From: an uncultured bacterium
Lineage (GTDB): Bacteria; Patescibacteriota; Minisyncoccia; Phycocordibacterales; CAIJYI01
DNA: 49,985 nucleotides
Assembly: GCA_903824855.1 (NCBI GenBank)
Contig: CAIJYI010000005.1
Span: 1 to 49,985 of the forward strand
Direction: 5' to 3'
Shown: positions 5,419-49,985 of the stretch, piece after piece
How the letters are laid out: every line of letters begins with the position of its first letter
Numbering within the stretch: the first letter of the stretch is position 1
Position numbers and translations under genes: made by a program
The notes under the pieces: model-generated
Database searches by the model: none
Seen by the model: only the letters and a program-made list of their open reading frames with translations
Told to the model about the DNA's origin: nothing

Positions 5419-5500
5419 ATATTTGACTTTGAAATATAAATATCGCATTATATTAATCAGATTTAACTTCACAACAATGTTATTTAAAAAAGGAGGACAC

Positions 5501-6737: not shown

Positions 6738-7676
6738 ATGCACGACCTACAAAAAGAAGGTTTAGCGAGGAGGCGCATATTTTATTATGTTCAACCCGCA
6801 GACCACAAAACAAACAATTTCTTAAGAACAGCCCTACCTGAAAAAGTAATAAAACGGTCGGGTCATGAAGTATTCGGTACTCCTGTTCCGTCAGAATTTG
6901 ATCTTTATCGTACATCATGGAATGACATCGAAATATTCATGGGTTACTCGTATCTGACTTTTAACGTCTACAAAAGAAGAGAGACTGAAACATTGCCTCG
7001 TTTCGCAATGAGAAAAAGTCCTGATATTGAAGCCCGCAACAATGCAGCAGAAAGAGTAAATATAGAAAAACTTTCACTTGTGAAATGTGCAAAACCATTA
7101 CCACAAAAAAAAGTTGATTCTGTGCCAAAGGTTCAGAAAATTTGGGAAATTCCGAAAAAATGTTTTCCGGAAAGACCTGAACTTTCACAAGAAAATAGCG
7201 AGAGAATGAAAAAATCTGCTCGCCCTGAAAAACGAACCTTAATATTGCTTGATCTTCCAAAAACAAAAAAAACAAAAAATTCTGAAGTTTCAAAAAAAGA
7301 AAAAACAGAAAATGTTTTTGACGTAAATGTACATTTAGAGAAATATTTAATCTGCCCACAACACAAACATTCAACAGTCGAATCGACTATTTCTCACATC
7401 AGAAAAGCTCTTCTTGAATCAGGTTTAAGCACTCAATCAATGTATGAGAGCGGAAAATCCAAGAATGAAAGTTTTGATTTGGTTTGGGAAGCAAACGGAA
7501 ACGCACTTTTTACGCTTTGGCGCTATGCGCGACAAAACGAATATGTACGATTTGTCGTTACCAGGTCGCCAAAAGACGGAATGTTTGATAATTTGGAAGA
7601 AGTACTAATTTACCCAAAAGAAAACAAAAGAGATACAAAATTTAGCCTTCTGCAATACAATTCAAGAAATTCATAA
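6738..7676 (+). CDS. Hypothetical protein with two related domains separated by a Lys/Glu/Pro linker
   Basis: 312-aa ORF with TTGCCA..TATAGT promoter and GGAG SD. Motif similarity to 12014-12775. Confidence 0.75.
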   Translation: MHDLQKEGLARRRIFYYVQPADHKTNNFLRTALPEKVIKRSGHEVFGTPVPSEFDLYRTSWNDIEIFMGYSYLTFNVYKRRETETLPRFAMRKSPDIEARNNAAERVNIEKLSLVKCAKPLPQKKVDSVPKVQKIWEIPKKCFPERPELSQENSERMKKSARPEKRTLILLDLPKTKKTKNSEVSKKEKTENVFDVNVHLEKYLICPQHKHSTVESTISHIRKALLESGLSTQSMYESGKSKNESFDLVWEANGNALFTLWRYARQNEYVRFVVTRSPKDGMFDNLEEVLIYPKENKRDTKFSLLQYNSRNS

Positions 7677-7692
7677 ACCACGGAGAAGTATT

Positions 7693-7908
7693 ATGTGCGA
7701 AAGATGTAATGACAAAAAAACCGTTTCGGTTACGAGAGGTGCACACAGACAAAGTATTGCGTGCCCCAAATGTCAAAAAGTGGAATACGACACTTTAGTC
7801 CGGATAGAGCCCTCCCAATACGGCAAAAGATGCCCTGAATGCGGAAGCCCTGTTTTTCTGACACCTGACGGAAATCAAATTACCGTTGTCTGCAAACATT
7901 GTAGATAA
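7693..7908 (+). CDS. Small double zinc-ribbon protein
   Basis: Four CxxC motifs (CERC, CPKC, CPEC, CKHC) and SD GGAG; palindromic terminator at 7948-7984. Confidence 0.75.
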   Translation: MCERCNDKKTVSVTRGAHRQSIACPKCQKVEYDTLVRIEPSQYGKRCPECGSPVFLTPDGNQITVVCKHCR

Positions 7909-8002
7909 TAAGAGATAATTTTTTCGTTACGTATATCGTTAAAATCAAATCCCTCAAGAGTTTTACTCTTGAGGGATTATTTTTATATATTTCCTTTTTG
8001 TG

Positions 8003-10102
8003 TTAACTCAAAATTATTCTTGCATCGAGAACGGTCGTTCCTTCACCTTCATTCATGACCAGGAGAGGGTTGATATCGATTTCAGAGATTTCAGGAAAAT
8101 CAATAATGAGCTTAGAAAGTCTTCCGAGCATTTCGGTAAGTGCCTTAACGTCAATCGGTTTCTGTCCTCGAAAACCGGTAAGTATTTTATGAGCCTTCAG
8201 CGTCTGAATCATACGTTTGGAATCATCTTCAGCGAGAGGTGCTAAACCAAAAGAAATATCTTTGTAAATCTCTACATAAATTCCTCCGAGACCAACCATT
8301 ACAATCGCGCCGAGAGAGGGATCGCGTTTGGCTCCAAGAATAATTTCAAATCCTTTTTTGTCCAGCATTTCTTCCATGATTACTCCGTCGATTTTTGCAT
8401 CGGGTTTATAGGCTAATACGGACTCCATGAGTCGGTCGAATTCTTCTCCCGCATTGTCAGGAAGAATATTGAGTCGAACTCCGCCAGCATCGCTTTTGTG
8501 TAAAATATCAGGCGAAACAATCTTCATTACGAAAGGTTTTCCGATTTCTATTGCTTTGGAAATTACCTCATCACGGTTTATTGCCATTTCAGCTTTCAAA
8601 ACAGAAAAACCATATGCGGAGAATAAATGAAGCGCTTCAAATTCTGAAAGAGACTTCTTCCCTTCCTCTTTTGCGGTGTTTAATATTTTTTGTGCATCAT
8701 CATGCCGAATATTTTCAAATTCAAACTTTTTAGACGGTTCCTTCTTCAGATAATCGCCATATTGTACCAATTTGGAAAGTGCATTTGCCGCTTCTTCCGG
8801 GTATTCTATCATCGCAACACCGCCTTTGTGTAAAATTTCAACACCGCCGTCAACCGAACTTCCACCCATAAAGCACGCGAGCACGGGCTTGTTGGTTTGC
8901 GATTTTATTCTCACTATTGCCTCGGCTGTTTCATTCACTTCCGTCATGGTTTGGTTCGTGAGTACGGCAAGAATGATATCTATATCTTTATCTTCAGCAA
9001 CCACGCGGAGCGCCTTCTCGTAACGAACGGAATCCGCATCCCCGACAACATCAACAGGATTTTTAGTTCCGGCTGCTTTCGGTAAAAATTCTATAAGTTT
9101 TGCATGTATTTCTTCGGAGAGGACGTTGACTTCAAGCCCGGAAAGAGACGCCTGATCTATTGCCAAAACACCCGGTCCTCCGGCATTAGTAACTACTCCG
9201 ATTCGTTTGCCACTCGGTATTCCGTTTGAAGAAAAAACTTTTATGTAATCAAAAAGCTCGGAAACTTTCTCTGCGCGAATAATTCCGGCCTGAGCGAAGA
9301 AAGCGTTAAATGCTTCGTCTGAACCTCCGAGGGCGCCCGTATGAGAAGCGCTTGCTCCGGCACCGGCGTTTGTCCGTCCTGCTTTGAGAGCAATGATTGG
9401 TTTGTTCTTTCCTTCTTTTTTAGCGTTTTCAATAATTTCAATGATTTCATGAGGGTGTGTGAGGTCTTCCAAATACATAGCAATAACTTTTGTATCGGGG
9501 TCATTTAACATATAGCGAATCATTTCTCTTTCATCAACCTGCGCCTTATTTCCCATGCTCACAAATTTCGAAAATCCGATTCCGAGTTTTTCCGAGTAAT
9601 CAAGAACCGCGACACAGAGCGCACCACTTTGGGAGAAGAATCCGACGCCGGCACTTTTTGGCATAATCCGAGCAAAGGAAGCATTCATATTAATGCTTGA
9701 ATTTATTACCCCAAGGCAATTCGGTCCGATGAGAGTAATATTGTTTTCATTGCAGACACGTGCGAGTTCATGTTCGAGTTCCGCCTCTCCTGTTTCTTTA
9801 TAGCCGGCTGTTATGACGATAGCCGCTTTGATTCCAATTTTTACGGCTTCATCTAATGCGGTTTTTACATCGACGGGATGAACGACAAAAATAACGAGTT
9901 CAACCGGTTTCCCGATAGAAGTGAGATTAGGAAAACATTTTTTACCGAGGATTTCATCAGCGTTTAGGTTTATCGGAAAAATTTCCCCTTCATATCCCTG
10001 TTCAACCAGATTTTTTAAGATGCCAAAACCGACATGAGTCGTGCGACGCGATGCGCCGACAATGGCAATGGATTTTGGATTAAAAACGGAGTCAAAGTTC
10101 AT
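8003..10102 (-). CDS. Acetate--CoA ligase (ADP-forming), fused alpha/beta type
   Basis: FNPKSIAIVGAS, GPNCLG, SQSGAL, ASHTGAL (phospho-His), TNAGGPG, and a C-terminal ATP-grasp with KIVSPDILHKSDAGGV and EIDINPL. Confidence 0.93.
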   Translation of the reverse strand: MNFDSVFNPKSIAIVGASRRTTHVGFGILKNLVEQGYEGEIFPINLNADEILGKKCFPNLTSIGKPVELVIFVVHPVDVKTALDEAVKIGIKAAIVITAGYKETGEAELEHELARVCNENNITLIGPNCLGVINSSINMNASFARIMPKSAGVGFFSQSGALCVAVLDYSEKLGIGFSKFVSMGNKAQVDEREMIRYMLNDPDTKVIAMYLEDLTHPHEIIEIIENAKKEGKNKPIIALKAGRTNAGAGASASHTGALGGSDEAFNAFFAQAGIIRAEKVSELFDYIKVFSSNGIPSGKRIGVVTNAGGPGVLAIDQASLSGLEVNVLSEEIHAKLIEFLPKAAGTKNPVDVVGDADSVRYEKALRVVAEDKDIDIILAVLTNQTMTEVNETAEAIVRIKSQTNKPVLACFMGGSSVDGGVEILHKGGVAMIEYPEEAANALSKLVQYGDYLKKEPSKKFEFENIRHDDAQKILNTAKEEGKKSLSEFEALHLFSAYGFSVLKAEMAINRDEVISKAIEIGKPFVMKIVSPDILHKSDAGGVRLNILPDNAGEEFDRLMESVLAYKPDAKIDGVIMEEMLDKKGFEIILGAKRDPSLGAIVMVGLGGIYVEIYKDISFGLAPLAEDDSKRMIQTLKAHKILTGFRGQKPIDVKALTEMLGRLSKLIIDFPEISEIDINPLLVMNEGEGTTVLDARIILS

Positions 10103-10113
10103 AATAAAAATAT

Positions 10114-11817
10114 TTATGCTAATGAATTAATTCTTTGAACAAGCCTTTCTCTTCCCATAACTTTCATAATAGAATGCAAATCAGGAGTATTGGTTTTTCC
10201 TGTTAAGAGAACTCGGAAAATTTTGGCAATGTCGCCGACTTGGCCTTTATATTTTGTTGGTTCCAATTTAAATTGTTTTGCTCCTTCAGCGTATCCGAGA
10301 TCTCTCGCTATTGTTTTTACTTTAGCAAACCATTCGTCTTTGGTATCGTTTTCATTATAAGTTTCCAAAAATGATTTAATGGCCGAATCGCAGTCTTCCT
10401 TGGTTACAAAAGAAAGTGTTTCTTCTCGATTATCTTTTATTTCGTCGAATATCGGATCAAAGAAATATCCCATTTCACTATTTAAATCAGCCCATTTTGA
10501 GATGTCTTTTCTTCCGCGTGATTCGCCCTCTCTTTCAATATTGAGTATCGATTTCGCATAACTTGAGTCTTTTTCCATTTCCAAGGCCAGCCTTTCATCA
10601 TATTTTTTTGCCCATTCTAGACCGACTGCGTATATTTCTTCGGCGGTCATTCGGGAAATAATTTCTTTGCTGACGTCATTTAATTTAACCATATCAAATA
10701 ACGGGCCGTTTGAACGTGAAAGTTTTTCAAATGTTAATTGAAATTCGGAATTATCCGTATCGGGATTTGCTTTTCGCCAATCTTCAAAAGAAGAATTTGC
10801 CAGATTGAGCAAGTATTCAACGACGGCGCGTGGAGGATAACCGAGCTCCTCGTAAAGCATTGCGTTTGCTTCGGGATCTTTTCTTTTGCTGATTTTTCTT
10901 TTTATGATATCACCTTTTTCATTCATTCCATCTTCTTTCTGAATTGGAGCAAGATGACCATACCGAGGTGGAGTAAATCCAAGGGCTTCAAATAATTGAA
11001 GATGAAGCGGTACGGAGGAAAGCCATTCATCACCTCTTAAGACATGAGTCGTTCCCATATAATGATCATCGACGGCGTGTGCGAGGTGATAGGTCGGCAA
11101 GCCTGTCGCCGCCGTAAGAATTTTTCGGTCAATATCGTTTTCAGAAAGTTCCAAATCCCCTTTTAATAAATCGCTGACTTTAATTTTATTTTCGAAATTT
11201 CCCTCTGAACGAAAGCGGATTACATAAGGCGTATTCTTTTCCAGTTCCTTTTCTATTTCCTCAACTGAAGCATCACGCCATTTTGCCCATTTACCATAAT
11301 AACCGGGGCGAAGTCCTTCTTTAACCTGTTCTTCACCCATTGATTTCGTTTCTTCACTCGTGCAAAAACAAGGATAAGCTTTCCCCTTTTCAACAAGAGA
11401 TTTCACGAGTCCTTGATAGATATCCTTACGCGCGCTTTGCGTGTATGGGCCATATTTGCCTTTTTCGTCACCGGAGATGGTCATGCCTTCATCGGTCGGA
11501 ATATGAAAATGGTTGAGCGACTTCACGATAACATCAGTGGTTTCGGCTCGTGAACGTTCTATATCAGTATCCTCAATCCTCAAGAAAAAAACACCGTTTG
11601 TCTGATGCGCAAATCTTTCTGAAATGAGAGCTGAGTAAAGACCACCCAAGTGCATGAGGCCGGTCGGGCTTGGTCCGACACGCGTTACCATAGCATCCGG
11701 CGGTAATTCACGCTTGGGATATTTTTCATTTAGTTCTTCCGGCGTCGGAAGTTTATTTGGGAAAAGCTTCTCGATGAGAGTTTGCGGAAGAATGTGATTT
11801 TGATTTTCTTGACTCAT
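10114..11817 (-). CDS. gltX: Glutamate--tRNA ligase
   Basis: PSPTGLMHLGG (HIGH), LRIEDTD, AYPCFCT, HVLRGDEW and KISKR (KMSKS). Start placed at MSQEN (11817). Confidence 0.95.
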   Translation of the reverse strand: MSQENQNHILPQTLIEKLFPNKLPTPEELNEKYPKRELPPDAMVTRVGPSPTGLMHLGGLYSALISERFAHQTNGVFFLRIEDTDIERSRAETTDVIVKSLNHFHIPTDEGMTISGDEKGKYGPYTQSARKDIYQGLVKSLVEKGKAYPCFCTSEETKSMGEEQVKEGLRPGYYGKWAKWRDASVEEIEKELEKNTPYVIRFRSEGNFENKIKVSDLLKGDLELSENDIDRKILTAATGLPTYHLAHAVDDHYMGTTHVLRGDEWLSSVPLHLQLFEALGFTPPRYGHLAPIQKEDGMNEKGDIIKRKISKRKDPEANAMLYEELGYPPRAVVEYLLNLANSSFEDWRKANPDTDNSEFQLTFEKLSRSNGPLFDMVKLNDVSKEIISRMTAEEIYAVGLEWAKKYDERLALEMEKDSSYAKSILNIEREGESRGRKDISKWADLNSEMGYFFDPIFDEIKDNREETLSFVTKEDCDSAIKSFLETYNENDTKDEWFAKVKTIARDLGYAEGAKQFKLEPTKYKGQVGDIAKIFRVLLTGKTNTPDLHSIMKVMGRERLVQRINSLA

Positions 11818-28916: not shown

Positions 28917-29942
28917 TTAGATTGTGTGATATTTTCCTTCCTTGTCTTTTTTGAAGTATTTTGCGTTTTGGAGATTGACCAAAATGGTGTTTTCCTTGAC
29001 GTATCTTTCTTTCATAACTTTTTCAACAATCTGAGTCTTAGTGAGAGGTCCTTCTTTTTCAAGTACATGGCGGATGACATCTTTGACAACTCCTCCGGTG
29101 TAACCCCATTCAGAGAGGACATAGAGTCCGCGTCCGACGAGTACAAAACGTTTGTCTTTGATGAGTTCGTTGTGACAAGTAGCGATATGAGCTTTCTTTC
29201 CGAATGTCTGTGAGATGTTCTTTGCGACTTCTGTGAAGTGCATCGGTGATCCATGTCGGCGAATGACGAGGAAAGCGTAATCTCTGATACCTCTCGCACT
29301 AATGTTTGGTGATGAAGCAACGCCCCAGTCTCCGAGAGTATTTTTTCCGAGAACTTTGGAAATTCCGAGCCATCTTTTTGCGGTGTGCTCATTTTTTCGT
29401 TTCGGGTCAGCATGCATTCTATCTAAGAATCGTTCGATTATTTCTTTTTCAGGGATTAAATCGCTATCCGAGAATTCTTTGTGGAGAGAATGAAGTACTG
29501 CGTGAACTTCGGAAGCCATTTCATCATTGACTGACCAGCGGTGTTTGAAAGTATCATCTTCTTTATGTTTCGTGAAGTCATCAGAAAGGACGAGGAAAAG
29601 GGTGATGTGATTCTGAATGGTCTTATCCGGTGAGATGTGCTCAAGGAAATCTTCTTCGCTCATGATTCCACCGAGGGATTCAAGAATGGTGCGGAGTTCT
29701 TCGATGGCGCTTGCGGCCTTTTCGAAAGCTTCGGATTTTTTGAGAGATGTGAGTGCAAAGTTTTCAATCTGTCGAACACGTTCCCTGGTTATACCATAGG
29801 TATTGCCGATTGATTCAAGAGTTTTTCGCTCAGGATTCTCGTCCAAACCGAAACGTCCAATAATGACGTCGCGTGCTCTCGGAGGTATTGTGGTAAGCAA
29901 ACTTTTTGTTACCTGCTTTGGCTTAAATGTTATAACTGACAT
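28917..29942 (-). CDS. Sigma-70 region 4-like HTH protein with C-terminal winged-helix domains
   Basis: RFGL..TLESIGNTYGITRERVRQIE, PMHFTEV..HNELIKDKRFVLVGRGLY; no sigma region 2. Confidence 0.85.
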   Translation of the reverse strand: MSVITFKPKQVTKSLLTTIPPRARDVIIGRFGLDENPERKTLESIGNTYGITRERVRQIENFALTSLKKSEAFEKAASAIEELRTILESLGGIMSEEDFLEHISPDKTIQNHITLFLVLSDDFTKHKEDDTFKHRWSVNDEMASEVHAVLHSLHKEFSDSDLIPEKEIIERFLDRMHADPKRKNEHTAKRWLGISKVLGKNTLGDWGVASSPNISARGIRDYAFLVIRRHGSPMHFTEVAKNISQTFGKKAHIATCHNELIKDKRFVLVGRGLYVLSEWGYTGGVVKDVIRHVLEKEGPLTKTQIVEKVMKERYVKENTILVNLQNAKYFKKDKEGKYHTI

Positions 29943-30155: not shown

Positions 30156-32972
30156 TTAAACAACAATACTTACCAGCTTTCCTTTTACATAAATTATCTT
30201 TTTTACTTCTTTTCCGTCGGTCCATTTTGAAACTTCCGGAATGGTCATTGCGTACTCTTTGATTGATTCCTCTGACCCATTGCGTGCAACCTCAAAGGTC
30301 GCGCGAAGCTTTCCATTTACCTGAACTCCTATGGTCATCATCTCACTTGAAATTTTTGATTCATCATAAGTCGGCCATGCTTCATTATAGATAAATGTAT
30401 TGTGACCAAGTTCATGCCACAATTCATCGGTAATGTGAGGAGCAAGTGGTGCTAACAATTTCAGATATCCTTCGAATATTGCGACGGGTATCTTTTCCTC
30501 TTTTTCAAATTCGTTCAAAAGAATCATCATTTTTGAAATTACCGTATTGAATTTGAAATCTTCTATATCTTCCCCGACTTTCTTTATTGTCTGATTATAG
30601 AGAGTCTCTAATTTATTACTTAGTTCACATTCACCGACTTTATCGGAAATCTTCCAGACTTTTTCCAGAAAACGCCTCGGACCAATAATACTCTCAGTAC
30701 TCCAGGTAGAGGTTTGATCAAATGGCCCCATAAACATTTCATATACGCGTAAGGTGTCAGCCCCGTATAAATTGACGATATCATCGGGATTAATGACATT
30801 TCCCCACCGCTTGCTCATCTTCCTTCCGTCTTCAGCAAGGATATTACCGAGAAATTCGAGCCGTTTAAACGGTTCGGAATAATTTACTACCCCGATATCA
30901 AAAAGGAATTTATGCCAAAAACGCGCGTAAATAAGATGACGTGTTGCGTGATCACCCCCGACATAAACATCAACGGGTGACCAGTATTTTTCTTTTTCTT
31001 TATCAACCGGCGCATTTTGATTACGAGGATCAATGTATCGCAAATAGTACCAGGAAGACCCGGCCCAGTTTGGCATGGTGTTTGTTTCGCGTTTTGCGTT
31101 ACCGTTGCATTTTGGACATTTCACATCCACCCAACTATGGATATTTGCGAGCGGTGATTCCCCTGTTCCTGACGGCTCGTATGAATCCACGTCCGGTAAT
31201 TTCACCGGCAAATCTTTTTCCGGTACCGGAACGACTCCGCAATTCTCACAGTGAATGACAGGAATCGGTTCTCCCCAATATCTTTGACGAGAAAAAACCC
31301 AATCGCGAAGTTTGTAAGTAGTTTTTAATTTTCCTCCGGCGAATTCGGTGATGGATTTTTTCGCTTCATCTGACGTGAGACCTGAAAATTCTCCCGAATC
31401 CTTCATAATACCCGGCCCTGAATAAACATCATTATTTACCAAACGTGAAAAAACGAGTGAATGTAATTCATCTTTTACTTTATTTCTTACATCTTCTCTG
31501 GTTATCCATTCAACAGTAAACTTTCCTTTTTCATCATCTTCGTGTTGTGTTGAAACCGTATCGTTATCAATAAGTTCAAAGTATAATCCGATTGCTTCAA
31601 TTTCTCTGTTTACTCCTTTGGAATGTGCAATGTAATGATGGTGAATTTTTTCGGAAGAAGAAATAAATTTCAAGTTTTTATAACCGGTTTCTTCTTCGAT
31701 TTCCCGAAGGGCGCATGCGATAGAATCTTCATCACCTTCTCTTCCCCCGCCGACAAAAAGATTTCCTCCCAATTTTTCACCCCAATTAATAGAGAGAAAA
31801 GTATCATTCATTGTATTATGAACAACGGCGACAATACTTTTTCGAAATTCTTCATTTTCTCTTTTTTCTCCCGTTATCGGTTCGATGACTGTTTTTATCG
31901 GAATATCAAACTTTTTTGCAAAAGCGAGATCTCTTTCGTCATGAGCAGGTACGGCCATAATGGCACCGGTTCCGTAGTGAGCCAAAACATAATCAGCGAT
32001 AAAAATTGGAAGCTCCTCTTTATTTACTGGATTTACAGCAAAAATCCCTTCAAGTTTTACTCCGGTCTTTTCTTTACCTTCGGCAGTTCTTTCGATTTCT
32101 GTTTTCTTTTTTACTTCCTCACGATACGCCTCAACATCATTCCAATTTCTAATATCTCTTTTCCATTCATCGATTAATTTGTGTTCAGGAGAAAGAACAA
32201 CGTATGTTGCGCCAAAAAGAGTATCGGGCCTTGTTGTAAATACTTTAAACGAGGATTCGTTTGTCGTCGTAAATTCCAATTCTGCGCCTTCTGATCTTCC
32301 AATCCAATTCCTTTGCGCTTCTTTCACATGATTCGGCCAATTGAGCGAATCGAGGTCTTCGATAAGTCTGTCGGCGTAATCAGTAATGCGAAGAACCCAC
32401 TGTCTCATAGGTTTCTTTTCGACGGTTGTTCCGCATCGTTCACAGGAATTTCCATCAAGGTCTTCATTCGCTAATCCCGTCTGACAACTCGGGCACCAAT
32501 TTACCGGTTCAAATGATTCATAGGCGAGTCCTTTCTCGAGCATTTTCAAGAATATCCATTGCGTCCATTTATAGTATTTTGTATCGGTAGTATTTATTTC
32601 CCTCTCCCAGTCATAATTGAAACCGATGTTTGAAAGTTGTTCTTTAAACCGCGCGACATTTTTCTCCACGGCAACCCGCGGATGAATCTTATTTTTTATG
32701 GCATATTGTTCTGCTGGCAAACCAAAAGCGTCCCACCCCATCGGATGCAATATATTGTATCCGTTCATTTTTTTGAAACGAGAGTAGATGTCTGAAGCGA
32801 TGTATCCTTTCGGATGTCCAACATGAAGACCTTCTCCTGAAGGAAAAGGAAACATGTCCAGAATGTAACACTTTGGTTTATCGCCACCTTCCTCCGTTTT
32901 GTAGATTTCGTGTTTCTCCCACTCGTGTTGCCACATCTTTTCGATTTTTGAGTGATTGTATTCCTTTGTCAT
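30156..32972 (-). CDS. leuS: Leucine--tRNA ligase with an internal Nudix domain
   Basis: MFPFPSGEGLHVGH, FTTRPDT, GTGAIMAVPAHDERD, DWVFSRQRYWGEPIP and KMSKR; Nudix insertion at about 31430-31880. Confidence 0.97.
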   Translation of the reverse strand: MTKEYNHSKIEKMWQHEWEKHEIYKTEEGGDKPKCYILDMFPFPSGEGLHVGHPKGYIASDIYSRFKKMNGYNILHPMGWDAFGLPAEQYAIKNKIHPRVAVEKNVARFKEQLSNIGFNYDWEREINTTDTKYYKWTQWIFLKMLEKGLAYESFEPVNWCPSCQTGLANEDLDGNSCERCGTTVEKKPMRQWVLRITDYADRLIEDLDSLNWPNHVKEAQRNWIGRSEGAELEFTTTNESSFKVFTTRPDTLFGATYVVLSPEHKLIDEWKRDIRNWNDVEAYREEVKKKTEIERTAEGKEKTGVKLEGIFAVNPVNKEELPIFIADYVLAHYGTGAIMAVPAHDERDLAFAKKFDIPIKTVIEPITGEKRENEEFRKSIVAVVHNTMNDTFLSINWGEKLGGNLFVGGGREGDEDSIACALREIEEETGYKNLKFISSSEKIHHHYIAHSKGVNREIEAIGLYFELIDNDTVSTQHEDDEKGKFTVEWITREDVRNKVKDELHSLVFSRLVNNDVYSGPGIMKDSGEFSGLTSDEAKKSITEFAGGKLKTTYKLRDWVFSRQRYWGEPIPVIHCENCGVVPVPEKDLPVKLPDVDSYEPSGTGESPLANIHSWVDVKCPKCNGNAKRETNTMPNWAGSSWYYLRYIDPRNQNAPVDKEKEKYWSPVDVYVGGDHATRHLIYARFWHKFLFDIGVVNYSEPFKRLEFLGNILAEDGRKMSKRWGNVINPDDIVNLYGADTLRVYEMFMGPFDQTSTWSTESIIGPRRFLEKVWKISDKVGECELSNKLETLYNQTIKKVGEDIEDFKFNTVISKMMILLNEFEKEEKIPVAIFEGYLKLLAPLAPHITDELWHELGHNTFIYNEAWPTYDESKISSEMMTIGVQVNGKLRATFEVARNGSEESIKEYAMTIPEVSKWTDGKEVKKIIYVKGKLVSIVV

Positions 32973-41862: not shown

Positions 41863-42495
41863 TTACTTGCGGATGAGTTTCTTGAAGAATGTGGAAAGTT
41901 TTGGTTCTATTTTTATTGGTTGGATTTTGCCTTGTGCGTTAACCTCATATCCCGGAGGAATGAGTTCCCCATCTCTGGTGAAAGCTGATAGTTCGTCTAA
42001 TGAACGAATGCGAGCGAGTTCCGCAACGGCATCTTTTCCGGCAGCTGTGGCGAATGCATCTTCTATTGTGGAAACTTTTTTTGAAGTAATAATGAAGTCA
42101 TTCTGATAAGATTCTGCTTTTGCTTTTTGACCCGTTTCCACTGAAAGATAGTAGAATTTACTTTTTTCCCTGAGCGACTCCATGTAGGAAAGCCAATCGG
42201 TTCTTAATTTCTGAATCAATTTATCATCATAACGATCCACTGCGGCAAATTTAGCATACCAGACACTCATGAGGTTTTTATAAATATAAATCTCTTTTCC
42301 TGAAATTGCATCGGGTAAGAAAACATCCGTCATCTTTTTTTCGAACTTCGTTTGTGCTTCAAGAACAGCTTCTTCTGTGACTTCTTTTTTTACAGGCAAA
42401 AATTCAACAGAAAGAGGTGTGTTGTCTATTTGCCTCATGTAGTGTTCCTTTGAAACAAACCACACGGCCACGATAATGAAAATCCATCCTATCAT
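41863..42495 (-). CDS. Hypothetical protein with an N-terminal membrane anchor
   Basis: Begins MIGWIFIIVAVWFV; 210 aa and predicted helical. Confidence 0.75.
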   Translation of the reverse strand: MIGWIFIIVAVWFVSKEHYMRQIDNTPLSVEFLPVKKEVTEEAVLEAQTKFEKKMTDVFLPDAISGKEIYIYKNLMSVWYAKFAAVDRYDDKLIQKLRTDWLSYMESLREKSKFYYLSVETGQKAKAESYQNDFIITSKKVSTIEDAFATAAGKDAVAELARIRSLDELSAFTRDGELIPPGYEVNAQGKIQPIKIEPKLSTFFKKLIRK

Positions 42496-42531
42496 TGGGT
42501 TATTATAACAAAACTGAGAGATAATTGAAAA

Positions 42532-43692
42532 TCACGGTTTTTCTTCAACCTTTTCGATATCACTGATTTCCTTTTCAATTTTTTGTTCCAAATTGTCTAT
42601 ATCATTACTGACGACGGAAAGTTTTTCGATATCGGTGGCGGTCGTATTTCCCTGCAATTTTGTTCGAATATCTTCTTTTAATATATCCATTGATTCGTGT
42701 AGGGTTTCTTCCGCTTCTTTGGCTTCGCGTCTTACGGCAATTCTTCTCTTCCAATCATCCCTTAGATGTTGAATAATTCTCCATATCAAGTAAAGAATTA
42801 CAAGAATAAGGAGGAAGAAGGCAAATTTAACTTCCCATCCAAGATCCGAAAAGATACTTCCGACACTAATAGATATTGAATTTGAGTCTTTACTATTCAA
42901 TCCGTTTTCCTTAATAACACGGGCTGTTACGGCATAATCACCTCGTTTAAGTGATTGAGGTACCACTAAAGTAAAACTTCCATCTTCATCAGCATTTCCC
43001 ATTATGAAAATTTTTGCCCCGGTTGTTGAAAGAAAGGTAACGAGAACCTGAATCTTCGGATAATCTGAAGTTCCGGTAATTGCTTCTGCTCCATATTTGG
43101 AACCAAGCGCTATTTCAGGAGGATTAAGTGTCGGTGCCGGTTGTGGAACCTCCGGTACTACCGGTAATGCCGGCGTTATCTGCAATGCAGGAGTAGTTGT
43201 CACCTTTGGTTTAGCGGCGATTATGGTATAGGAAGCGCCCCTTGTTGAATCCATCAAATCTGTTCCTTGCCCGTCATTTGCTAAAATTTGCCCGGACTGG
43301 AAAGTAACGCTTCCTGTACCCGTTTTAATTCCATGCAAAGTTGCAGAAACGACAGTTCCTGATAACTCTTTGATTCCCCCCGGAGTTACTCCTTCAAGAG
43401 AAAGTGTCCCGGCGCTTCTCGAAAGTGTCGGCTCTTTTACCCAGAAAGTGAGAAGAGACCCGGCTTTCGAAATTGAATCTATGGAAAAAATGGAAGGCGG
43501 AAACAATAAGGATAAAGAAACAGCATTAAAAGGAGCATCACTCGTTGAGATGGCGCGGACAGTGAAGGGTTGTCCGACTTCGTACGTTCCCGAGGATGGA
43601 CTAATACTGAGAGACGCCGCATAGGAATATACCGGTATGCAAACAAGCGCCAGAAGAAAAAAGAGTATTATTTTATGTAATTTTGTTTGCAT
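42532..43692 (-). CDS. Cohesin-like domain + Ig-like domain + TM + cytoplasmic coiled coil
   Basis: Signal peptide; SLSISPSSGTYEVGQPFTV..NAVSLSLLFP..FWVKEP..GTGSVTF..LANDGQGT; Pro-rich linker; ITGTS..ADEDGSFT; TM FAFFLLILVILYLIW. Confidence 0.8.
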   Translation of the reverse strand: MQTKLHKIILFFLLALVCIPVYSYAASLSISPSSGTYEVGQPFTVRAISTSDAPFNAVSLSLLFPPSIFSIDSISKAGSLLTFWVKEPTLSRSAGTLSLEGVTPGGIKELSGTVVSATLHGIKTGTGSVTFQSGQILANDGQGTDLMDSTRGASYTIIAAKPKVTTTPALQITPALPVVPEVPQPAPTLNPPEIALGSKYGAEAITGTSDYPKIQVLVTFLSTTGAKIFIMGNADEDGSFTLVVPQSLKRGDYAVTARVIKENGLNSKDSNSISISVGSIFSDLGWEVKFAFFLLILVILYLIWRIIQHLRDDWKRRIAVRREAKEAEETLHESMDILKEDIRTKLQGNTTATDIEKLSVVSNDIDNLEQKIEKEISDIEKVEEKP

Positions 43693-44560
43693 GTTTTTTT
43701 CTGTAAATGAAAAAGATTGTAGATATTAATAAAAGTAAAATAATGGTAAGGGCAAATATTTGCATTTTGGATATGTTACCCATCTCTACTTCCGCAATCT
43801 TTTCATTTCCCTTTTTATCAAAAGCTTTGACGATTATTTTCGTATCCAAAGATTGATTTTTCAAAAGATACGGACTGACGGCGGGAATAAAGGAGGCACC
43901 GTTATCTTCGCTCACCTCGTAATGATCAATCCCTGAACCTTTATCTTGAGTGGCAAAAACAAGAAAGTATTTTCCGTCAAAAATGTTCACATCTTTCGAA
44001 ACAATTGGAACAAAATTTTCCGGTGATTCCGTATCTTTTACGGCTTCAATATTTAGAGATGACGTCGCAAAATCGGTGGTAACAGTAAACGAATATGGTG
44101 ATGAGGAAACTTTTGCAACGGTACCGATACCGTCATTTTTTAATAATCGCAAACTATCTGTTTGAATAAAATCAGCTCCACTTTTCTTAGTTTGAAAAAC
44201 TGCGGAAAACAACAATCCGTTCGTACCCGAATATCCTCCCGGAGTGATTCCGGAAAAAATTATGGCCCCCTGTTTTTCTCCAATCGATAATTGTTTAAAA
44301 CCCGGTCTTTCAATCCAAAAATTTATCAGCGAATTTCCGTCTCGTATTTCTTTTCCCTGCAAGATATCAGCCGAATAGAGAATTCTTCCTTCGTAAGCAT
44401 TAATTGCTTCCCTTTCCGTATTAAGGAAAACAGAAACGAGAAATTCTTCATTTTGTGCGAATGTTTGTTTATCTGTAACAACGGAAATCTGCGCACCAAA
44501 TGTTGATTGGGCGACAAATATTAGGAATAATACTATGATGGTTTTTTTAAACATGTTCAT
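43673..44560 (-). CDS. Cohesin-like domain protein with a C-terminal membrane anchor
   Basis: Signal peptide; EEFLVSVFLNTE..INAYEGRILY..FWIERP..FSGITPGG..LKNDGIGT; QDKGSGIDHYEV; C-terminal TM plus RKK. Confidence 0.8.
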   Translation of the reverse strand: MNMFKKTIIVLFLIFVAQSTFGAQISVVTDKQTFAQNEEFLVSVFLNTEREAINAYEGRILYSADILQGKEIRDGNSLINFWIERPGFKQLSIGEKQGAIIFSGITPGGYSGTNGLLFSAVFQTKKSGADFIQTDSLRLLKNDGIGTVAKVSSSPYSFTVTTDFATSSLNIEAVKDTESPENFVPIVSKDVNIFDGKYFLVFATQDKGSGIDHYEVSEDNGASFIPAVSPYLLKNQSLDTKIIVKAFDKKGNEKIAEVEMGNISKMQIFALTIILLLLISTIFFIYRKKHANKIT

Positions 44561-44594
44561 GATTTTATGGAAATTCTTTATTATCAAATCGTAA

Positions 44595-45932
44595 TTATCC
44601 GGTCCAGTAGTAGGCCATAATACTAAAGTCAGTGAGGTCGATTTTTCCGTCTCCATTCAACTTAATAAACTCTGTCTGTTTAAAGGTAGCGCTCAAAGGT
44701 TTCTTATACCAATAAGCGGCGATGGAGAAGTCTACAAGATTAACACGGCAATCAGAGTTGAGATCTCCTTTTACGGGACATTTTCCCGGGGTTATGGAAA
44801 TATTTTTCGTACCTACTTTGAAACCTACGGTATTACTAAATTGACTAATTTCCCCTCCGATTGCAGCCTTTGATTTTGCCGAGTGTCCGCCAAGTTCCAG
44901 TACGGAACTATCAAAATTTAATAAATAAACTCCATTCTTATCGGATTGTTTTTGAACAAAAATATTTGAATCAGAATTTACGTTTATTGTAATTTGCGCA
45001 TTCGGTGTACTTTGCCCAAATATCGCGATGTTCTCACCTTTTATAACTTCGCTTTTATCAACCGCAATAGTCGGCGCAATAAATATTCCTCCGATTTTTG
45101 TGGTTACACCGGCGGTAATATAAACGGGAAAAGTAAATACGCTTGAACGAATTCCATTTTTATCTTCTCCATAAACTGAAAAATTATAATTTCCAGCAGA
45201 AAGTGAATTTAAGCTAGCAAAGAAATTACTGTCGGGACCGGCAATAGTCGTGAGTACTATTTGTCCGTCTTTCAAAAAACTGACTTTACTCAAAGGATAT
45301 GCTCTTCCGGAAAATTCAACATTTGTTTGAACAGCTGGCGGAGTACCTCCACCTCCCCCACCACCTCCTCCACCGGGAACTATTGGCGGAATAATTGGCG
45401 CGACGGGAGTAGCCGAAACTTCAGTTGATGAGGCGATAGAATTTCCAAAGGCATCTTTTACTACAACGACAAAATAATACGGGGTTCCATTTGATAGCCC
45501 ACCTTGAATATATGTTGTGACATTTCCCAGCGTGTAATAAGTATATGGACCTCCTGATACCGTAGATTGCGCAACGGTATAAGCTGTTGGTGTCCAACCT
45601 AAATATCCGAGTGCTGCGTTCCAAAATAATGATATTTGCGCATTACCCGGTGTTGTTGAAACGACGGGAGAAGAAGCAAAAGGAAAATATAGAAAACCGG
45701 CATTATTGCCAAAGGAAGCAGAACTGCTGACACCGTTTGAGACTTGAGAGATGACTCCGTAGAGATTAAAATTTGCCGATGAACCATAACCTCCGGCATT
45801 CATAACAGGATCAAGCACTTTATAATTCGTTGAACTGAATTGATCTGAATACGCGAGTCCCGCACCAAAAAACGACATAACAAAGAAAATGAGAGTGAAA
45901 AATAATCTTTGTTGTGTTTTTTTAGAAATCAT
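44595..45932 (-). CDS. Secreted Fn3/Ig-like protein with a C-terminal dockerin-like module
   Basis: Signal peptide; Fn3 (PGNAQISLFW..GLSNGTPYYFVVV); poly-Gly linker; two Ig-like repeats; GDLNSDCRVNLVDFSI and LNGDGKIDLTDFSI. Confidence 0.85.
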   Translation of the reverse strand: MISKKTQQRLFFTLIFFVMSFFGAGLAYSDQFSSTNYKVLDPVMNAGGYGSSANFNLYGVISQVSNGVSSSASFGNNAGFLYFPFASSPVVSTTPGNAQISLFWNAALGYLGWTPTAYTVAQSTVSGGPYTYYTLGNVTTYIQGGLSNGTPYYFVVVVKDAFGNSIASSTEVSATPVAPIIPPIVPGGGGGGGGGGTPPAVQTNVEFSGRAYPLSKVSFLKDGQIVLTTIAGPDSNFFASLNSLSAGNYNFSVYGEDKNGIRSSVFTFPVYITAGVTTKIGGIFIAPTIAVDKSEVIKGENIAIFGQSTPNAQITINVNSDSNIFVQKQSDKNGVYLLNFDSSVLELGGHSAKSKAAIGGEISQFSNTVGFKVGTKNISITPGKCPVKGDLNSDCRVNLVDFSIAAYWYKKPLSATFKQTEFIKLNGDGKIDLTDFSIMAYYWTG

Positions 45933-45944
45933 TTAATGAAAATT

Positions 45945-46802
45945 TTATTGCGCGGAAGGATTTGCCGTATCGGGGGTTGGTTCCGTTTCTGTTGTTGTGA
46001 AGGATTCGAGCAACACGTCTACAACCTCTTGAACTTTGGGGACATTAATAATCGGCGCAGGTTCAGTTGTTGGACTAGAAACCGTTTCATCAACGGCAGG
46101 CGAAGCATTTACCGGTTCGGGTGTTGGTTCGATAACAACAGGAACAGTGTCGGTAGCATTCGTTTGATTTTCAATAATGTTTGTTGTATTTGTTTCAACC
46201 TGTTCCGGATATTGGGTGGAAACAATGACTCTTTCCGGATGATTTTCGACGTTAGTTTCTTCTTGAACAACTTCCGGAATTACGGGAACATACCCTGCTA
46301 TCACCTCCTCTTTTGGATTCAATAACTTTCCAATTAATCCCGAATATTCTGTAACTATTTCTTTTTGAGACTCCCCTTTCGCTATCTCCATTTTTTGAAC
46401 TTTTTTCAGATAAGATAATTCGTAATTTATGTTTTCCCCGAGTTCCTTCGCGATGAATAAACCGAGATCTTTTCCTTCAAGTGAATCCTTGCTAATAGTA
46501 AGGACTTTTTCCATCTGTTTGTTTTGCCAAACGCTATTTTCTATCACGATAGTTTGATAGGAGTAATCGGCGTAATAATTTTTTTCATCATCCTTAATGG
46601 AATTGATTCTCAAATTGAAATTATACGCATCAAGATCTACGGTGAGTATCCAATTATTATCTACTGAAACGACGGTTGACTGACTGGAATAAACGGAAGA
46701 AGGATTTGCTGCGAAGGTAATGCCGAAGCCGAAGAAAAACAAAGCGAGGAGTATAGTAAAGGCATTATTGTATTTTACAAAATTGAAAAATTTAGTATAC
46801 AT
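45945..46802 (-). CDS. Exported hypothetical protein with a Pro/Thr/Glu-rich tail
   Basis: N-terminal hydrophobic segment; ATG at 46802 with TATAAT 7 nt upstream. Confidence 0.8.
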   Translation of the reverse strand: MYTKFFNFVKYNNAFTILLALFFFGFGITFAANPSSVYSSQSTVVSVDNNWILTVDLDAYNFNLRINSIKDDEKNYYADYSYQTIVIENSVWQNKQMEKVLTISKDSLEGKDLGLFIAKELGENINYELSYLKKVQKMEIAKGESQKEIVTEYSGLIGKLLNPKEEVIAGYVPVIPEVVQEETNVENHPERVIVSTQYPEQVETNTTNIIENQTNATDTVPVVIEPTPEPVNASPAVDETVSSPTTEPAPIINVPKVQEVVDVLLESFTTTETEPTPDTANPSAQ

Positions 46803-46843
46803 GCCATCTATTATAAGGGATAACAAAAAGCAAATCAACGCAT

Positions 46844-46880
46844 AAAAAAAACCTGTGTGGCATTCCCAACAGGTTTTTTT
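46844..46880 (-). terminator. Intrinsic terminator after the Ser/Pro repeat gene
   Basis: AAAAAAAACCTGT..ACAGGTTTTTTT. Confidence 0.7.
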
Positions 46881-49800
46881 ATGTCATCCAATATACTCCA
46901 TTCACATCTCTTATCGATTCACGAGGCACACCATTTACCGTTTTAATCTGGGCTTCGTTGACCTCATTAATCGAAAGAAGTTCAATCAACGCAACGGAAG
47001 GACTCGGCGAAGGCGAAATGGATGATGAAGGGCTTTGGCTCGGAGAGATTGATGCTGAGGGGCTTGGAGATATCGACGGCGATATTGAGCTTGAAGGACT
47101 TGATGATGGTGAGTATGAAGGCGAGATTGATGGACTGATTGATGGAGATTCCGAAGGCGAGAGTGAAGGGCTAACAGATGCCGAAGGACTGATTGAAGAC
47201 GAAGGGCTTAATGATGGAGAAGCTGACGGCGAGACAGACGGACTAACGGAAGCTGAAGGACTTTGTGATGGAGAAGATGAAGGCGAGGCTGATGGACTAA
47301 TAGATGCTGAAGGACTGAGTGATGGAGATTCTGATGGAGAGAGAGAAGGACTAACGGAAGCTGAAGGACTCAGAGATGGTGAGAGTGAGGGAGAGAGTGA
47401 TGGACTAACAGATGCCGAAGGACTCAAGCTCGGCGAGAGTGAGGTTGAAGGACTTCGTGACGGCGAAAGAGACGTTGACGGCGAAAGAGATGGCGAGATC
47501 GATGGAGAGAGTGATGGGCTGATAGATGCCGACGGACTCAGTGATGGAGATTCCGAAGGCGAGAGTGATGGACTAGCCGACGTCGATGGACTCAGAGATG
47601 GAGATTCAGACGGAGAGAGTGATGGACTGGCGGATACTGAAGGACTCAGAGATGGAGATTCTGAAGGTGAAGTTGAAGGACTGATTGATGATGACGGACT
47701 CAATGATGGAGATTCCGAAGGAGAGAGAGAAGTGCTTGGAGAAAGCGATGGACTAATTGATGTGCTTGGGCTCTGCGAAGAAGATCCTCCAATCGGAGTT
47801 GAGGGGCTTATTGAAGAACTCGGACTCAACGAAGGAGACTCTGATGGAGAGTCAGATGGAGAAACTGAAGTTGATGGACTTTGTGACGGAGATTCTGATG
47901 GAGAGAGTGAAGGACTGGCGGAAGCTGAAGGACTCAGAGACGGAGAAAGTGAGGGAGAGAGTGATGGACTGATTGATGATGAAGGACTGGTTGATGATGA
48001 AGGACTCTGAGATGGAGAAGATGAAGGAGAAAGCGATGGACTAACGGAAGTTGAAGGACTTTGTGATGGAGAAGATGAAGGAGAAAGCGATGGACTGATA
48101 GATGCCGAAGGACTGAGTGATGGTGAGACTGATGGAGAGATTGATGGACTGACGGAAGTTGAGGGACTCAGAGATGGAGAAGATGAAGGAGAGATGGATG
48201 GGCTAACGGAAGCCGAAGGACTCTGAGAAGGAGAAGATGACGGCGAGACAGATGGACTAACGGAAGTTGAAGGACTCAGAGACGGCGAGGTTGACGGCGA
48301 AGATGATGGACTAATAGAAGCTGAAGGACTGAGCGATGGAGATTCTGAAGGAGAGATTGATGGACTAACAGATGTTGAAGGACTCAAGCTCGGCGAGAGT
48401 GAAGTTGAAGGACTTCGTGATGGCGAGACGGACGTTGACGGCGAAAGAGATGGCGAGATTGATGGAGAGGATGAAGGACTGAGTGAAGAAGATGGACTCA
48501 GAGAAGGAGAAGATGATGGAGAGACAGACGGACTAACGGAAGTTGAAGGACTAAGTGATGGAGAAACTGACGGAGAGACTGATGGACTGACGGAAGTAGA
48601 AGGACTGAGTGACGGTGAGATTGACGGTGAGGAAGATGGACTAATAGAAGACGATGGACTCAGAGATGGAGAAGATGATGGAGAAATTGATGGGCTAACA
48701 GATGTCGAAGGACTCAGAGATGGAGATTCTGATGGAGAGATTGATGGACTGATGGAGGTTGAAGGACTGGTTGAAGAACTCGGGCTCAAGCTCGGACTAG
48801 ATGATGGTGATGCAGATGATGATGGAGATAGAGATGGCGAAGGTGATGGGCCGGCAAGTCTCAAATGTGTCGTAATCATCGACCATGAAAGACTGCCGAA
48901 CCCGACGAGGGTGGCACTCGACTTCATAGATCTGGCCGACGCGTCATAATATTCCTGTATCTGGGAGTCTACTACTCTTACCCCCGGAGCTGCAGTAATC
49001 TTGTCTTCCCTTCTCTCCGTTTCGCCATTTTCCGGATCTACATATAACGAAATGTTGTTTGCTAATGGCGCACTTCCCAACATTGAGATGGCCATACTAC
49101 CAGTCAATCCTTCCGCTAATGAGATTGAAGCATGTTGCGGTGATCCTCCTGAACCGTTCGCTATCGAAATTTCAGTAAATGCGCTTTCTGTACTTGATGA
49201 ACCTGTATAAGAAACAGCCGACCATGCATGGTTTGTGGAGGAATCAAAAGTAACGGAAATCAATTCGCTTCCGGCGTTTTCTCTAAAAACAAACCAGAAC
49301 TCGTTAGATAAAACGGTGGAGTCAGAACTTTTCGCCAAAAATGTCATCGATACTCCGGCGATTGTCACACTGCTCGGCCCGGTTGTTCCAAGATAAGAAA
49401 CATTGAACACAACCATCACGTTTGCGTCATGAGTTAAAGTTGCGCTTGAATTTGTTCCTGTTCCATTTGAACCGGTATCTGCATCATAAGCAACAGGCGG
49501 AATTGAAGGAGAAGCAGAACTTGATGGACTCAAGCTCGGACTTTCTGATGGTGAGTCAGATGGGCTCACCGATGTCGATGGACTCAAACTTGGTGAGATT
49601 GAGGTTGAAGGGCTAAGCGAAGGTGAGCTTGACGTTGACGGTGAAAGCGAAGGAGAAATTGACGGAGAACTAGAAGGAGAAATTGAACTTGAAGGACTGA
49701 GCGATGGAGAGACCGACGGAGAATTTGAAGGAGAAACAGAACTCGATGGACTCAGTGATGGAGAGACTGATGGTGAATTAGATGGCGAAACAGAACTCGA

Positions 49801-49985
49801 CTGAGAAAGCGAGGGAGAAACTGATGGAGAGTTAGAAGGAGAAATCGAACTTGAAGGACTCGAGCTCGGAGAGATGGATGATGATGGCGAAAGCGATGGA
49901 GAAATCGAACTCGATGGACTGAGTGATGGTGAGACAGATGGTGAGTTTGAAGGACTCACTGAAGAACTCGGGCTTAGTGATGGAG
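46879..49985 (-). CDS. Giant alternating-serine (SPSx) repeat surface protein, 5'-truncated by the window edge
   Basis: The frame is open to the window end (over 1030 codons visible). Two S-x dipeptide tracts flank an in-frame, non-repetitive beta-rich domain of about 215 aa (about 48850-49500). Confidence 0.88.
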   Translation of the reverse strand, partial: PSLSPSSSVSPSNSPSVSPSLSPSSSISPSLSPSSSISPSSSPSSSISPSNSPSVSPSLSQSSSVSPSNSPSVSPSLSPSSSVSPSNSPSVSPSLSPSSSISPSSSPSISPSLSPSTSSSPSLSPSTSISPSLSPSTSVSPSDSPSESPSLSPSSSASPSIPPVAYDADTGSNGTGTNSSATLTHDANVMVVFNVSYLGTTGPSSVTIAGVSMTFLAKSSDSTVLSNEFWFVFRENAGSELISVTFDSSTNHAWSAVSYTGSSSTESAFTEISIANGSGGSPQHASISLAEGLTGSMAISMLGSAPLANNISLYVDPENGETERREDKITAAPGVRVVDSQIQEYYDASARSMKSSATLVGFGSLSWSMITTHLRLAGPSPSPSLSPSSSASPSSSPSLSPSSSTSPSTSISPSISPSESPSLSPSTSVSPSISPSSSPSLSPSSSISPSSSPSISPSLSPSTSVSPSVSPSVSPSLSPSTSVSPSVSPSSSPSLSPSSSLSPSSSPSISPSLSPSTSVSPSRSPSTSLSPSLSPSTSVSPSISPSESPSLSPSASISPSSSPSTSPSLSPSTSVSPSVSPSSSPSQSPSASVSPSISPSSSPSLSPSTSVSPSISPSVSPSLSPSASISPSLSPSSSPSQSPSTSVSPSLSPSSSPSQSPSSSTSPSSSISPSLSPSLSPSLSPSASASPSLSPSESPSQSPSTSVSPSDSPSESPSLSPSSSISPSTPIGGSSSQSPSTSISPSLSPSTSLSPSESPSLSPSSSISPSTSPSESPSLSPSVSASPSLSPSESPSLSPSTSASPSLSPSESPSLSPSASISPSLSPSISPSLSPSTSLSPSRSPSTSLSPSLSPSASVSPSLSPSLSPSLSPSASVSPSLSPSESPSLSPSASISPSASPSSSPSQSPSASVSPSVSPSASPSLSPSSSISPSASVSPSLSPSESPSISPSISPSYSPSSSPSSSISPSISPSPSASISPSQSPSSSISPSPSPSVALIELLSINEVNEAQIKTVNGVPRESIRDVNGVYWMT

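Follow-up and report, generated by a model that had tools for sequence, protein, structure and literature searches.

A probable cohesin-dockerin tether at the cell membrane of an uncultured Patescibacteriota bacterium

The pairing of a cohesin with a dockerin is specific and usually Ca-dependent, and the cellulosome combines dockerin-tagged carbohydrate-active enzymes (CAZymes) with a multi-cohesin scaffoldin that includes a carbohydrate-binding module. Here we describe three adjacent genes, denoted B, C and D, on a 49,985-nt contig (CAIJYI010000005.1, assembly GCA_903824855.1; this whole stretch is referred to as the window) of an uncultured, ultra-small bacterium (Patescibacteriota; Minisyncoccia; Phycocordibacterales; CAIJYI01). 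Gene B encodes a secreted protein with a C-terminal dockerin, and genes C and D encode paralogous proteins with cohesin-like heads and predicted C-terminal membrane anchors. The folds, the sequence layouts that imply topology and the gene linkage, taken together, are best compatible with a membrane-anchored cohesin-dockerin pair, and B, C and D probably represent a non-cellulosomal tether at the cell membrane.

Among the described systems, the single-cohesin anchoring proteins of Clostridium thermocellum, represented by the complexes Coh-OlpC/Doc435 (4dh2) and Coh-OlpA/Doc918 (3ul4), are similar in that one cohesin is present per anchor and the secreted partner is dockerin-tagged (the binding being a prediction in the case of B). 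The VIA-align comparison of the D model with the cohesins of these two complexes yields Z values of 14.9-15.4 and 2.3-2.6 A over 129-134 residues. The clostridial cohesin anchors use SLH repeats or sortase; in contrast, the Pfam Sortase and SLH families have no match in the present genome (1.1 Mb in 45 contigs, rated 100% complete). Further differences from the clostridial anchors are that the putative docked protein is an Fn3/Ig stalk rather than an enzyme or scaffoldin and that two or three distinct cohesin paralogs go with a single dockerin gene.

The best structural matches of D are the non-cellulosomal cohesins of Clostridium perfringens glycoside hydrolases (2vo8, 2jh2, 2w1n) and Archaeoglobus fulgidus (2xdh), which show that cohesin-dockerin pairs are used outside cellulosomes; such cohesins and dockerins are reportedly the subject of a 2009 study by Peer et al. 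The domain order is comparable as well: in 2w1n, the cohesin is followed by FnIII, and in D by an Ig domain. Unlike D, however, the C. perfringens modules reside on secreted enzymes (according to the PDB titles), bitopic membrane proteins are absent from this set, and the sequence identity to D is 11-14%.

Patescibacteria, for which candidate phyla radiation (CPR) is another name, are believed to live in attachment to other cells; to our knowledge, little has been established on how these bacteria hold surface proteins and fibres on the envelope. Two described CPR systems are relevant here. The Pam pilus of Candidatus Mycosynbacter amalyticus (Troman et al. 2026, PMC13278184) is, according to the accessible text of the preprint, a CPR-specific surface structure of Saccharimonadia with Sec-exported subunits and C-terminal transmembrane (TM) anchoring; it comprises donor-strand-exchange pilins, membrane-anchored chaperones and the terminator PamR, a two-domain beta-sandwich protein whose C-terminal TM helix tethers the fibre and which can be likened to C and D by description alone. 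Southlakia epibionticum encodes SEML1_0315 (Wang et al. 2023, PMC10633639), which is reported as an essential envelope protein with a dockerin domain and a suggested role in host contact. Similarly to B, it is described as a dockerin-bearing protein of a member of the Patescibacteria, in this case an epibiont of a different class (Saccharibacteria). In the accessible portions of PMC10633639 and 10.1101/2021.08.21.457207, CPR dockerins are mentioned in passing. Literature searches on dockerins and cohesins of Parcubacteria, Patescibacteria and CPR retrieved no paper on this conserved cassette or on TM-anchored cohesins in Parcubacteria. The earlier note on this DNA considered the locus a candidate uncharacterised system, but the proteins themselves had already been machine-annotated as cohesin and dockerin by NCBI. 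The domain families, their non-cellulosomal use and the NCBI labels on these proteins are already known.

Dockerin and cohesin modules

A profile constructed from 42 C-terminal segments of the B family (A4) identifies nine dockerins with solved structures at E < 1e-3, including 2y3n_B (4.4e-8), 2yik_A (7.6e-7) and 1daq_A (2.6e-5). Type I dockerins consist of two tandem segments of ~22 residues, each with a 12-residue Ca-binding loop followed by a helix. The C-terminal module of B is a duplicated segment, and its two helices, DFSIAAYWY and DFSIMAYYW, are nearly identical to each other and almost invariant across the family. The duplicated Ca-loop motif noticed earlier is borne out with respect to the duplication, the helices and the canonical first loop (DLNSDCRVNLVD); Ca binding is uncertain at the second loop (KLNGDGKIDLTD), which has K at loop position 1, and among the relatives, this position is occupied by K, R or H in 51 of 71 sequences and by D or E in 6 of 71. 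Exactly two cysteines flank the first loop in 59 of 78 relatives, in five different patterns, compared with none in 19 and a single one in 0. Given this paired covariation, a disulfide is expected, which fits an extracellular protein. Judging from the profile matches, B ends in a true dockerin. Together with the signal peptide, the Fn3 domain and two Ig domains (Table 1), this assignment bears out the view that B is a secreted Fn3/Ig protein with a C-terminal dockerin.

The AlphaFold2 (AF2) model of B has a mean predicted local distance difference test score (pLDDT) of 75.4, with values below 50 for residues 23-83 and 183-198. The dockerin is modelled with three helices (residues 399-408, 415-424 and 433-441) at pLDDT of ~88-92, and a Foldseek search with the whole model retrieves exclusively FnIII/Ig arrays of adhesins. 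The region of B that precedes the Fn3 domain (residues 29-85) is conserved in the relatives and contains three similar short motifs, S-S-x-N-F/Y-x-L/V; an atlas search with residues 25-90 gave no usable relative.

Proteins C and D have the same sequence layout, namely a signal peptide, a head and a single C-terminal hydrophobic segment, and the TM anchors previously proposed for both proteins are present in the form of these segments. The description of C and D as paralogous cohesin-like proteins is likewise supported. The two share the motifs FWVKEP/FWIERP, GVTPGG/GITPGG and NDGQGT/NDGIGT, and a hidden Markov model (HMM) of the D head matches C at 3.2e-18. The cohesin fold is a nine-stranded beta-sandwich (jelly-roll), and the AF2 model of D (pLDDT 84.1) contains a beta-sandwich at residues 27-158, followed by an Ig domain (193-277) and two long helices (286-347 and 352-384), the latter forming the tail for which the earlier note put forward a coiled coil. 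A VIA-align search with this model gives cohesins at all ranks from 1 to 44 (Z 12.1-16.8), the first non-cohesin appearing at Z 11.9; the top matches are 2vo8 (Z 16.8, 2.2 A, 130 residues), 2jh2 (15.9) and 2xdh (15.5). The best single-module cohesins superimpose on D with a root-mean-square deviation (rmsd) of ~2.2-2.6 A over ~130 residues, and Foldseek comparison with single cohesin modules yields target TM-scores (TMt) of 0.69-0.79, the value for 2xdh being 0.79. At the sequence level, a profile of 63 head domains of the D family (A3) matches solved cohesins of Ruminococcus flavefaciens at 6e-5 and 9e-5, the Pfam Cohesin family (PF00963) matches 4 of 33 homologs of D (best 6.3e-7), and several D homologs are named 'cohesin domain-containing protein' by NCBI. 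Family profile, homologs and predicted fold together underlie the assignment of the D head to the cohesin fold, in spite of the negative Pfam result for D itself that is discussed below. Conservation within the D family is concentrated on one face of the sandwich: 16 of 44 positions on strands 3, 5, 6 and 8, which we take to be the dockerin-binding sheet of canonical cohesins, are conserved at 90% or more, compared with 4 of 46 on strands 1, 2, 4, 7 and 9.

Gene linkage and genome census

Relatives of B are numerous (2286 at E <= 0.001 among 8000 candidates scored, some of them named 'dockerin type I repeat-containing protein') and are encoded in 511 of 600 pattern-matched stretches of the species-genome collection. 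The closest relatives of B, C and D come from records named Parcubacteria, Nomurabacteria, Paceibacterota and similar; those of B show 53-74% identity to it, a degree of conservation far above that of its neighbours. All counts for related loci below refer to the 80 top-ranking loci that encode B relatives; every one of the 80 has a tblastn match to C downstream of B and in the same orientation. At least one cohesin-domain open reading frame (ORF) was detected in 78 of these loci and at least two in 74 (4 loci with one, 41 with two, 33 with three). The same picture emerges from an evenly drawn set of 301 genomes of the phylum, for which genome counts were made by hand from match tables. The A2 profile has matches in 39 genomes, the match extends into the dockerin in 31, and in 30 of these 31 module-bearing genomes a cohesin is encoded directly downstream on the same strand, the exception being located at a contig end. 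Thus, conservation of the gene order, which the earlier note had named as a check, is observed in both samples; the B-C-D arrangement is far beyond chance, and B, C and D are inherited together across Parcubacteria-type genomes.

A FastTree tree of 188 head domains separates them, for the most part, into C-type, D-type and third-type groups that correspond to gene position; the position label changes 13 times on this tree, compared with 83.7 after shuffling, although many forks are unresolved. Protein C belongs to the positional 'first' clade with 84% local support, which is below the 95% mark of the tree. Among the 185 cohesin-bearing ORFs of the related loci, 184 have a single cohesin domain. 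The exception, at positions 6871-9468 of locus L072, is an 866-aa ORF in which a C-type and a D-type protein follow each other with no stop between them, the C-type TM segment being directly succeeded by the D-type signal-like segment; this run-on stems either from a natural fusion of the two genes or from a mistake in the assembly.

Most of the A2 matches in the phylum sample cover residues ~180-444 of B alone, in ORFs of 260-340 aa, and 80 of 83 dockerin ORFs have the dockerin-bearing module at the C-terminus. A search with the 251-aa Ig-Ig-dockerin module identifies 1308 representative protein clusters at E <= 1e-10; among the 150 highest-scoring representatives (proteins of ~290-520 aa), nearly all end with it. 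The conserved unit therefore appears to be Ig-Ig-dockerin, with a variable N-terminal part. Being found in 31 of the 301 genomes and in these 1308 clusters, the module is common. With regard to its distribution, the strongest full-length relatives of B (E from 1e-164 to 1e-198) occur in another family of the phylum (f32, 3 of 3 genomes), and the order to which the window belongs has only weak or partial matches, in 2 of 5 genomes; possible reasons for this pattern are transfer between Patescibacteria and a loss of the N-terminal half.

According to the family HMMs of this analysis, the genome encodes three cohesin-like domains, one per ORF, and two dockerins. The second pair is located on another contig (C33, locus L083, positions 4926-11284, minus strand), where the dockerin gene is directly upstream of the cohesin gene. 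Its dockerin protein, truncated by the contig end, is at least 1607 aa long and combines Ig repeats and a YDG domain with a dockerin at the C-terminus. In the cohesin protein (483 aa), the signal peptide and the cohesin-like head are followed by a Big_13 domain, a TM helix and a tail of charged residues. Together with B-C-D, this pair places both dockerins and all three cohesin-like domains of the genome in dockerin-then-cohesin arrangements. Two-component genes, encoding response regulators and PAS histidine kinases, are located just downstream of the second pair.

These linkage data bear on the possibility that C and D act independently of B, as membrane proteins of an adhesin or ligand-binding type that merely share a cohesin-like sandwich, do not bind the B dockerin and are linked to B simply as envelope genes. 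Such a possibility is in line with the failure of the Pfam Cohesin HMM to detect C and D, with the lower-scoring VIA-align matches of the D model to a CLIPPER adhesin domain (Z 11.9) and to Gram-positive pilins (11.3-11.6), and with the 52 sampled genomes that have a cohesin-like domain but no detected B-type module (82 minus 30). It does not explain the same-strand adjacency in a fixed order in 30 of 31 independent module-bearing genomes, nor the fact that the only other dockerin gene of the genome is also directly followed by the only other cohesin-like gene; moreover, the family profile matches true cohesins by sequence, and conservation is focused on the sheet that presumably binds the dockerin in known cohesins. 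We therefore regard independent functions of C and D as improbable.

Several observations nevertheless weigh against a cohesin-dockerin tether. The Pfam searches suggested earlier gave a divided result: Dockerin_1 (PF00404) scores 24.6 bits at B in a six-frame search of the genome, above the cut-off of 22.9, but 21.5 bits, just under the cut-off, on the whole B protein, and no match to Cohesin is obtained for C, for D or elsewhere in the genome up to E <= 1. The cohesin fold of the C head is predicted from its homology to D. The second Ca loop of the B dockerin lacks the usual acidic residue at position 1, so that Ca dependence may be partial. A cohesin-like domain is found in 82 of the 301 sampled genomes, compared with 31 that have the B-type module, which implies many cohesin-like proteins without a detected B-type partner. 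In a mirror-tree analysis of 66 loci, the dockerin distances correlate equally weakly with those of the C-type (partial r 0.23) and D-type (0.20) heads; both values could stem from shared ancestry and do not distinguish C from D as the partner. Finally, the association of the B dockerin with the C and D cohesins is a prediction from gene linkage and from the concentration of conserved positions on one face of the D head.

A small cellulosome-like enzyme scaffold for polysaccharide breakdown would involve the same domain families, and matches to CPR cohesins and dockerins are read in this way in the accessible part of 10.1101/2021.08.21.457207. The census speaks strongly against it. Neither of the two dockerin proteins of the genome has a catalytic or carbohydrate-binding Pfam domain, and 12 longer relatives of the module carry exclusively beta-sandwich or adhesin-type Pfam families. 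The absence of carbohydrate-active enzymes noted earlier from the operon alone extends to all these dockerin-bearing proteins, the two of the genome and the 12 longer relatives, on which no CAZyme Pfam domain was detected. Furthermore, there is one cohesin per protein, and no multi-cohesin scaffoldin was found among the three cohesin-bearing ORFs of the genome or the 185 of the related loci. An enzyme scaffold thus appears extremely improbable, and cohesin and dockerin matches in such genomes should not be read as cellulose degradation.

The predicted tether and surface fibres

The predicted tether can be pictured as follows. Because the signal peptide is followed by the head and then by the C-terminal anchor, C and D are expected to expose the head outside the cell and to have the C-terminus inside. 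B would be exported via Sec and its dockerin would fold, with a first loop that resembles Ca-binding loops and a cysteine pair suggestive of a disulfide. The cohesin of D, of C or of both would then receive the dockerin on its conserved 8-3-6-5 sheet, such that the Fn3/Ig stalk and the conserved N-terminal segment of B would be held a short distance above the membrane, and the conserved helical cytoplasmic tail of D could couple the tether to the cell interior. The surface lattice or host-attachment apparatus suggested in the earlier note is speculative. Given that the N-terminal parts vary across lineages, from almost nothing to giant adhesin-like repeats, Ig-Ig-dockerin could be a snap-on module of general use by which surface proteins are anchored to the membrane, in an organism with no sortase or SLH match. 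If correct, the tether would be a simple plug-and-socket answer, drawn from the families of cellulosome parts and with the socket fixed in the membrane, to the question of how CPR bacteria hold proteins on their envelope.

A more elaborate arrangement can be imagined in which each of the two near-identical dockerin helices holds a different cohesin. B would then be clamped between a C-type and a D-type anchor in a heterotrimeric transmembrane tether, donor strands in its N-terminal part would cap or nucleate a fibre or lattice, and the D helix would link the complex to the interior. This would be a new, phylum-specific way of fastening surface structures, but we consider it speculative and unlikely.

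A related proposal casts the cassette as the base, in the membrane, of a surface fibre built by donor-strand exchange, either a Pam-type pilus or one akin to it. B would then be an adaptor or terminator instead of the cargo on display, inserting an N-terminal strand into the last subunit and its dockerin into the membrane cohesins. This possibility refines the tether more than it opposes it. Short relatives of B have a signal peptide, a short segment with alternating hydrophobic residues and a Gly-rich linker followed by Ig-Ig-dockerin, and the strand-like segment and linker would fit a donor strand. Residues 23-83 of B are well conserved, yet reach a pLDDT of only ~30 in the AF2 model of the monomer, as would be expected if folding depended on a partner. 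Some of the related loci also encode suitable neighbours: a ~350-aa secreted beta-rich protein is found upstream of B in 10 of the 80, and in five others (L044, L045, L061, L062 and L081) a pair of upstream genes codes for a secreted protein of ~175 aa and for a protein of ~200 aa that ends in a TM segment and for which weak sub-threshold Pfam matches alone predict a beta-sandwich. These three types of genes are candidate pilin and chaperone genes. In addition, D gives Foldseek matches to RbmA (E ~2e-7), the fold that is assigned to PamR in the accessible text of PMC13278184.

Other evidence argues against such a fibre base. The alignments of D with RbmA are poor (rmsd ~19 A, TMt ~0.28), whereas those with cohesins are tight. 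Unlike the Pam operon, the cassette is not adjoined by any pilin-like or chaperone-like gene in the window. HMMs of the pilin-like and chaperone-like neighbour clusters, which are small and of unverified homology to Pam, and the Pfam PapD_N family have no match in the genome. A profile of the B N-terminal region matches none of six neighbour clusters of the related loci, and a candidate pilin-like protein (L033:3782-4831) has no sequence relative in the PDB, the best phmmer hit being a chance-level one to an unrelated enzyme at E 0.082. As far as the accessible text of PMC13278184 extends, the words dockerin and cohesin have 0 occurrences, and Pam pilins are reported there mostly from Saccharimonadia and Microgenomatia. 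On balance, a Pam-type base appears rather unlikely for this locus, and the tether composed of B, C and D remains the preferred interpretation.

Locus layout and neighbouring genes

The earlier note described four closely spaced or overlapping genes on the minus strand behind one predicted promoter, and this description agrees with the coordinates obtained here (Table 1). The co-directional ORFs A, B, C and D extend over 42532-46802, with a gap of 12 nt between A and B and an overlap of 20 nt between C and D. The likely start of C is M33 (44560), where the signal peptide begins with MNMFKK; with this start, B and C are separated by 34 nt, and with the long C ORF they overlap by 62 nt. A promoter-like site precedes gene A, and another one directly follows the stop codon of D, so that the next gene is probably a separate transcription unit; this arrangement suggests that it has its own transcription start. 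The promoter-like sites are consensus matches alone, 20 of which are present in the region compared with 13.9 expected in shuffled sequences.

Table 1. Coordinates of genes, domains and promoter-like sites in the window
Feature	Position	Strand	Description
Gene A	45945..46802	-	285 aa from ATG at 46802; ORF open from TTG at 46838
Gene B	44595..45932	-	445 aa; predicted secreted stalk protein
B, layout			Signal peptide ~1-28; conserved region 29-85; Fn3 91-174; Gly-rich linker 183-198; Ig 204-272; Ig 277-374; dockerin 385-445
B, conserved N-terminal region	45678..45848	-	Residues 29-85
B, dockerin module	44598..44780	-	Residues 385-445; two repeated loop-helix segments reaching the C-terminus
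Gene C	43673..44560	-	295 aa from likely start M33; full ORF 43673-44656
C, cohesin-like domain	44078..44494	-	ORF residues 55-193; preceded by signal peptide, followed by small beta domain
C, C-terminal TM segment	~43703..43765	-	Followed by 9-aa tail
Gene D	42532..43692	-	386 aa; N-terminal signal peptide
D, predicted cohesin fold	43219..43614	-	Residues 27-158; followed by Pro-rich linker
D, Ig domain	42862..43116	-	Residues 193-277; followed by TM segment from ~286 and helical cytoplasmic tail to 384
Promoter-like site before A	46838..46810	-	TTGATT-17-TATAAT; 10/12 consensus; ends 8 nt before ATG of A
Promoter-like site after D	42531..42502	-	Extended -10; directly after stop of D
Next gene after D	41863..42495		
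Serine-repeat protein	46879..49985	-	At least 1034 aa; ends at contig end
Leucyl-tRNA synthetase	30159..32972	-	938 aa
Sigma70 region 4/HARE-HTH protein	28920..29942	-	341 aa

Gene A encodes a protein with an N-terminal hydrophobic anchor or signal, a region of ~160 aa and a tail rich in Pro, Glu and Thr. It has no Pfam or NCBIfam match above the cut-off and no usable atlas match, and comparison with hhalign indicates that its family is unrelated to two other upstream small-protein clusters (2 and 8). Gene A had been counted as a member of the system, but a tblastn search finds it in only 5 of the 80 related loci, and it therefore cannot be considered a demonstrated part of the conserved cassette. 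Other genes recur upstream of B in the related loci, such as those for a membrane protein of 133 aa in 36 loci, for a protein resembling class-A beta-lactamases in 17 loci and for the ~350-aa secreted beta-rich protein mentioned above; downstream, YchF is encoded in 8 of the 80.

The gene upstream of A encodes a serine-repeat protein in which tripeptide repeats of the Ser-Pro-Ser type surround a non-repeat core of ~200 aa. This protein has no Pfam family, and its NCBIfam matches are low-complexity ones to serine-rich adhesins, far below the cut-off. The remaining genes of the window are housekeeping genes. Both Sigma70 region 4 and a HARE-HTH domain are present in a 341-aa protein of the window. 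In the leucyl-tRNA synthetase, a NUDIX match (PF00293, 1.7e-10) covers residues 383-497, immediately after the editing domain, and looks like an inserted domain.

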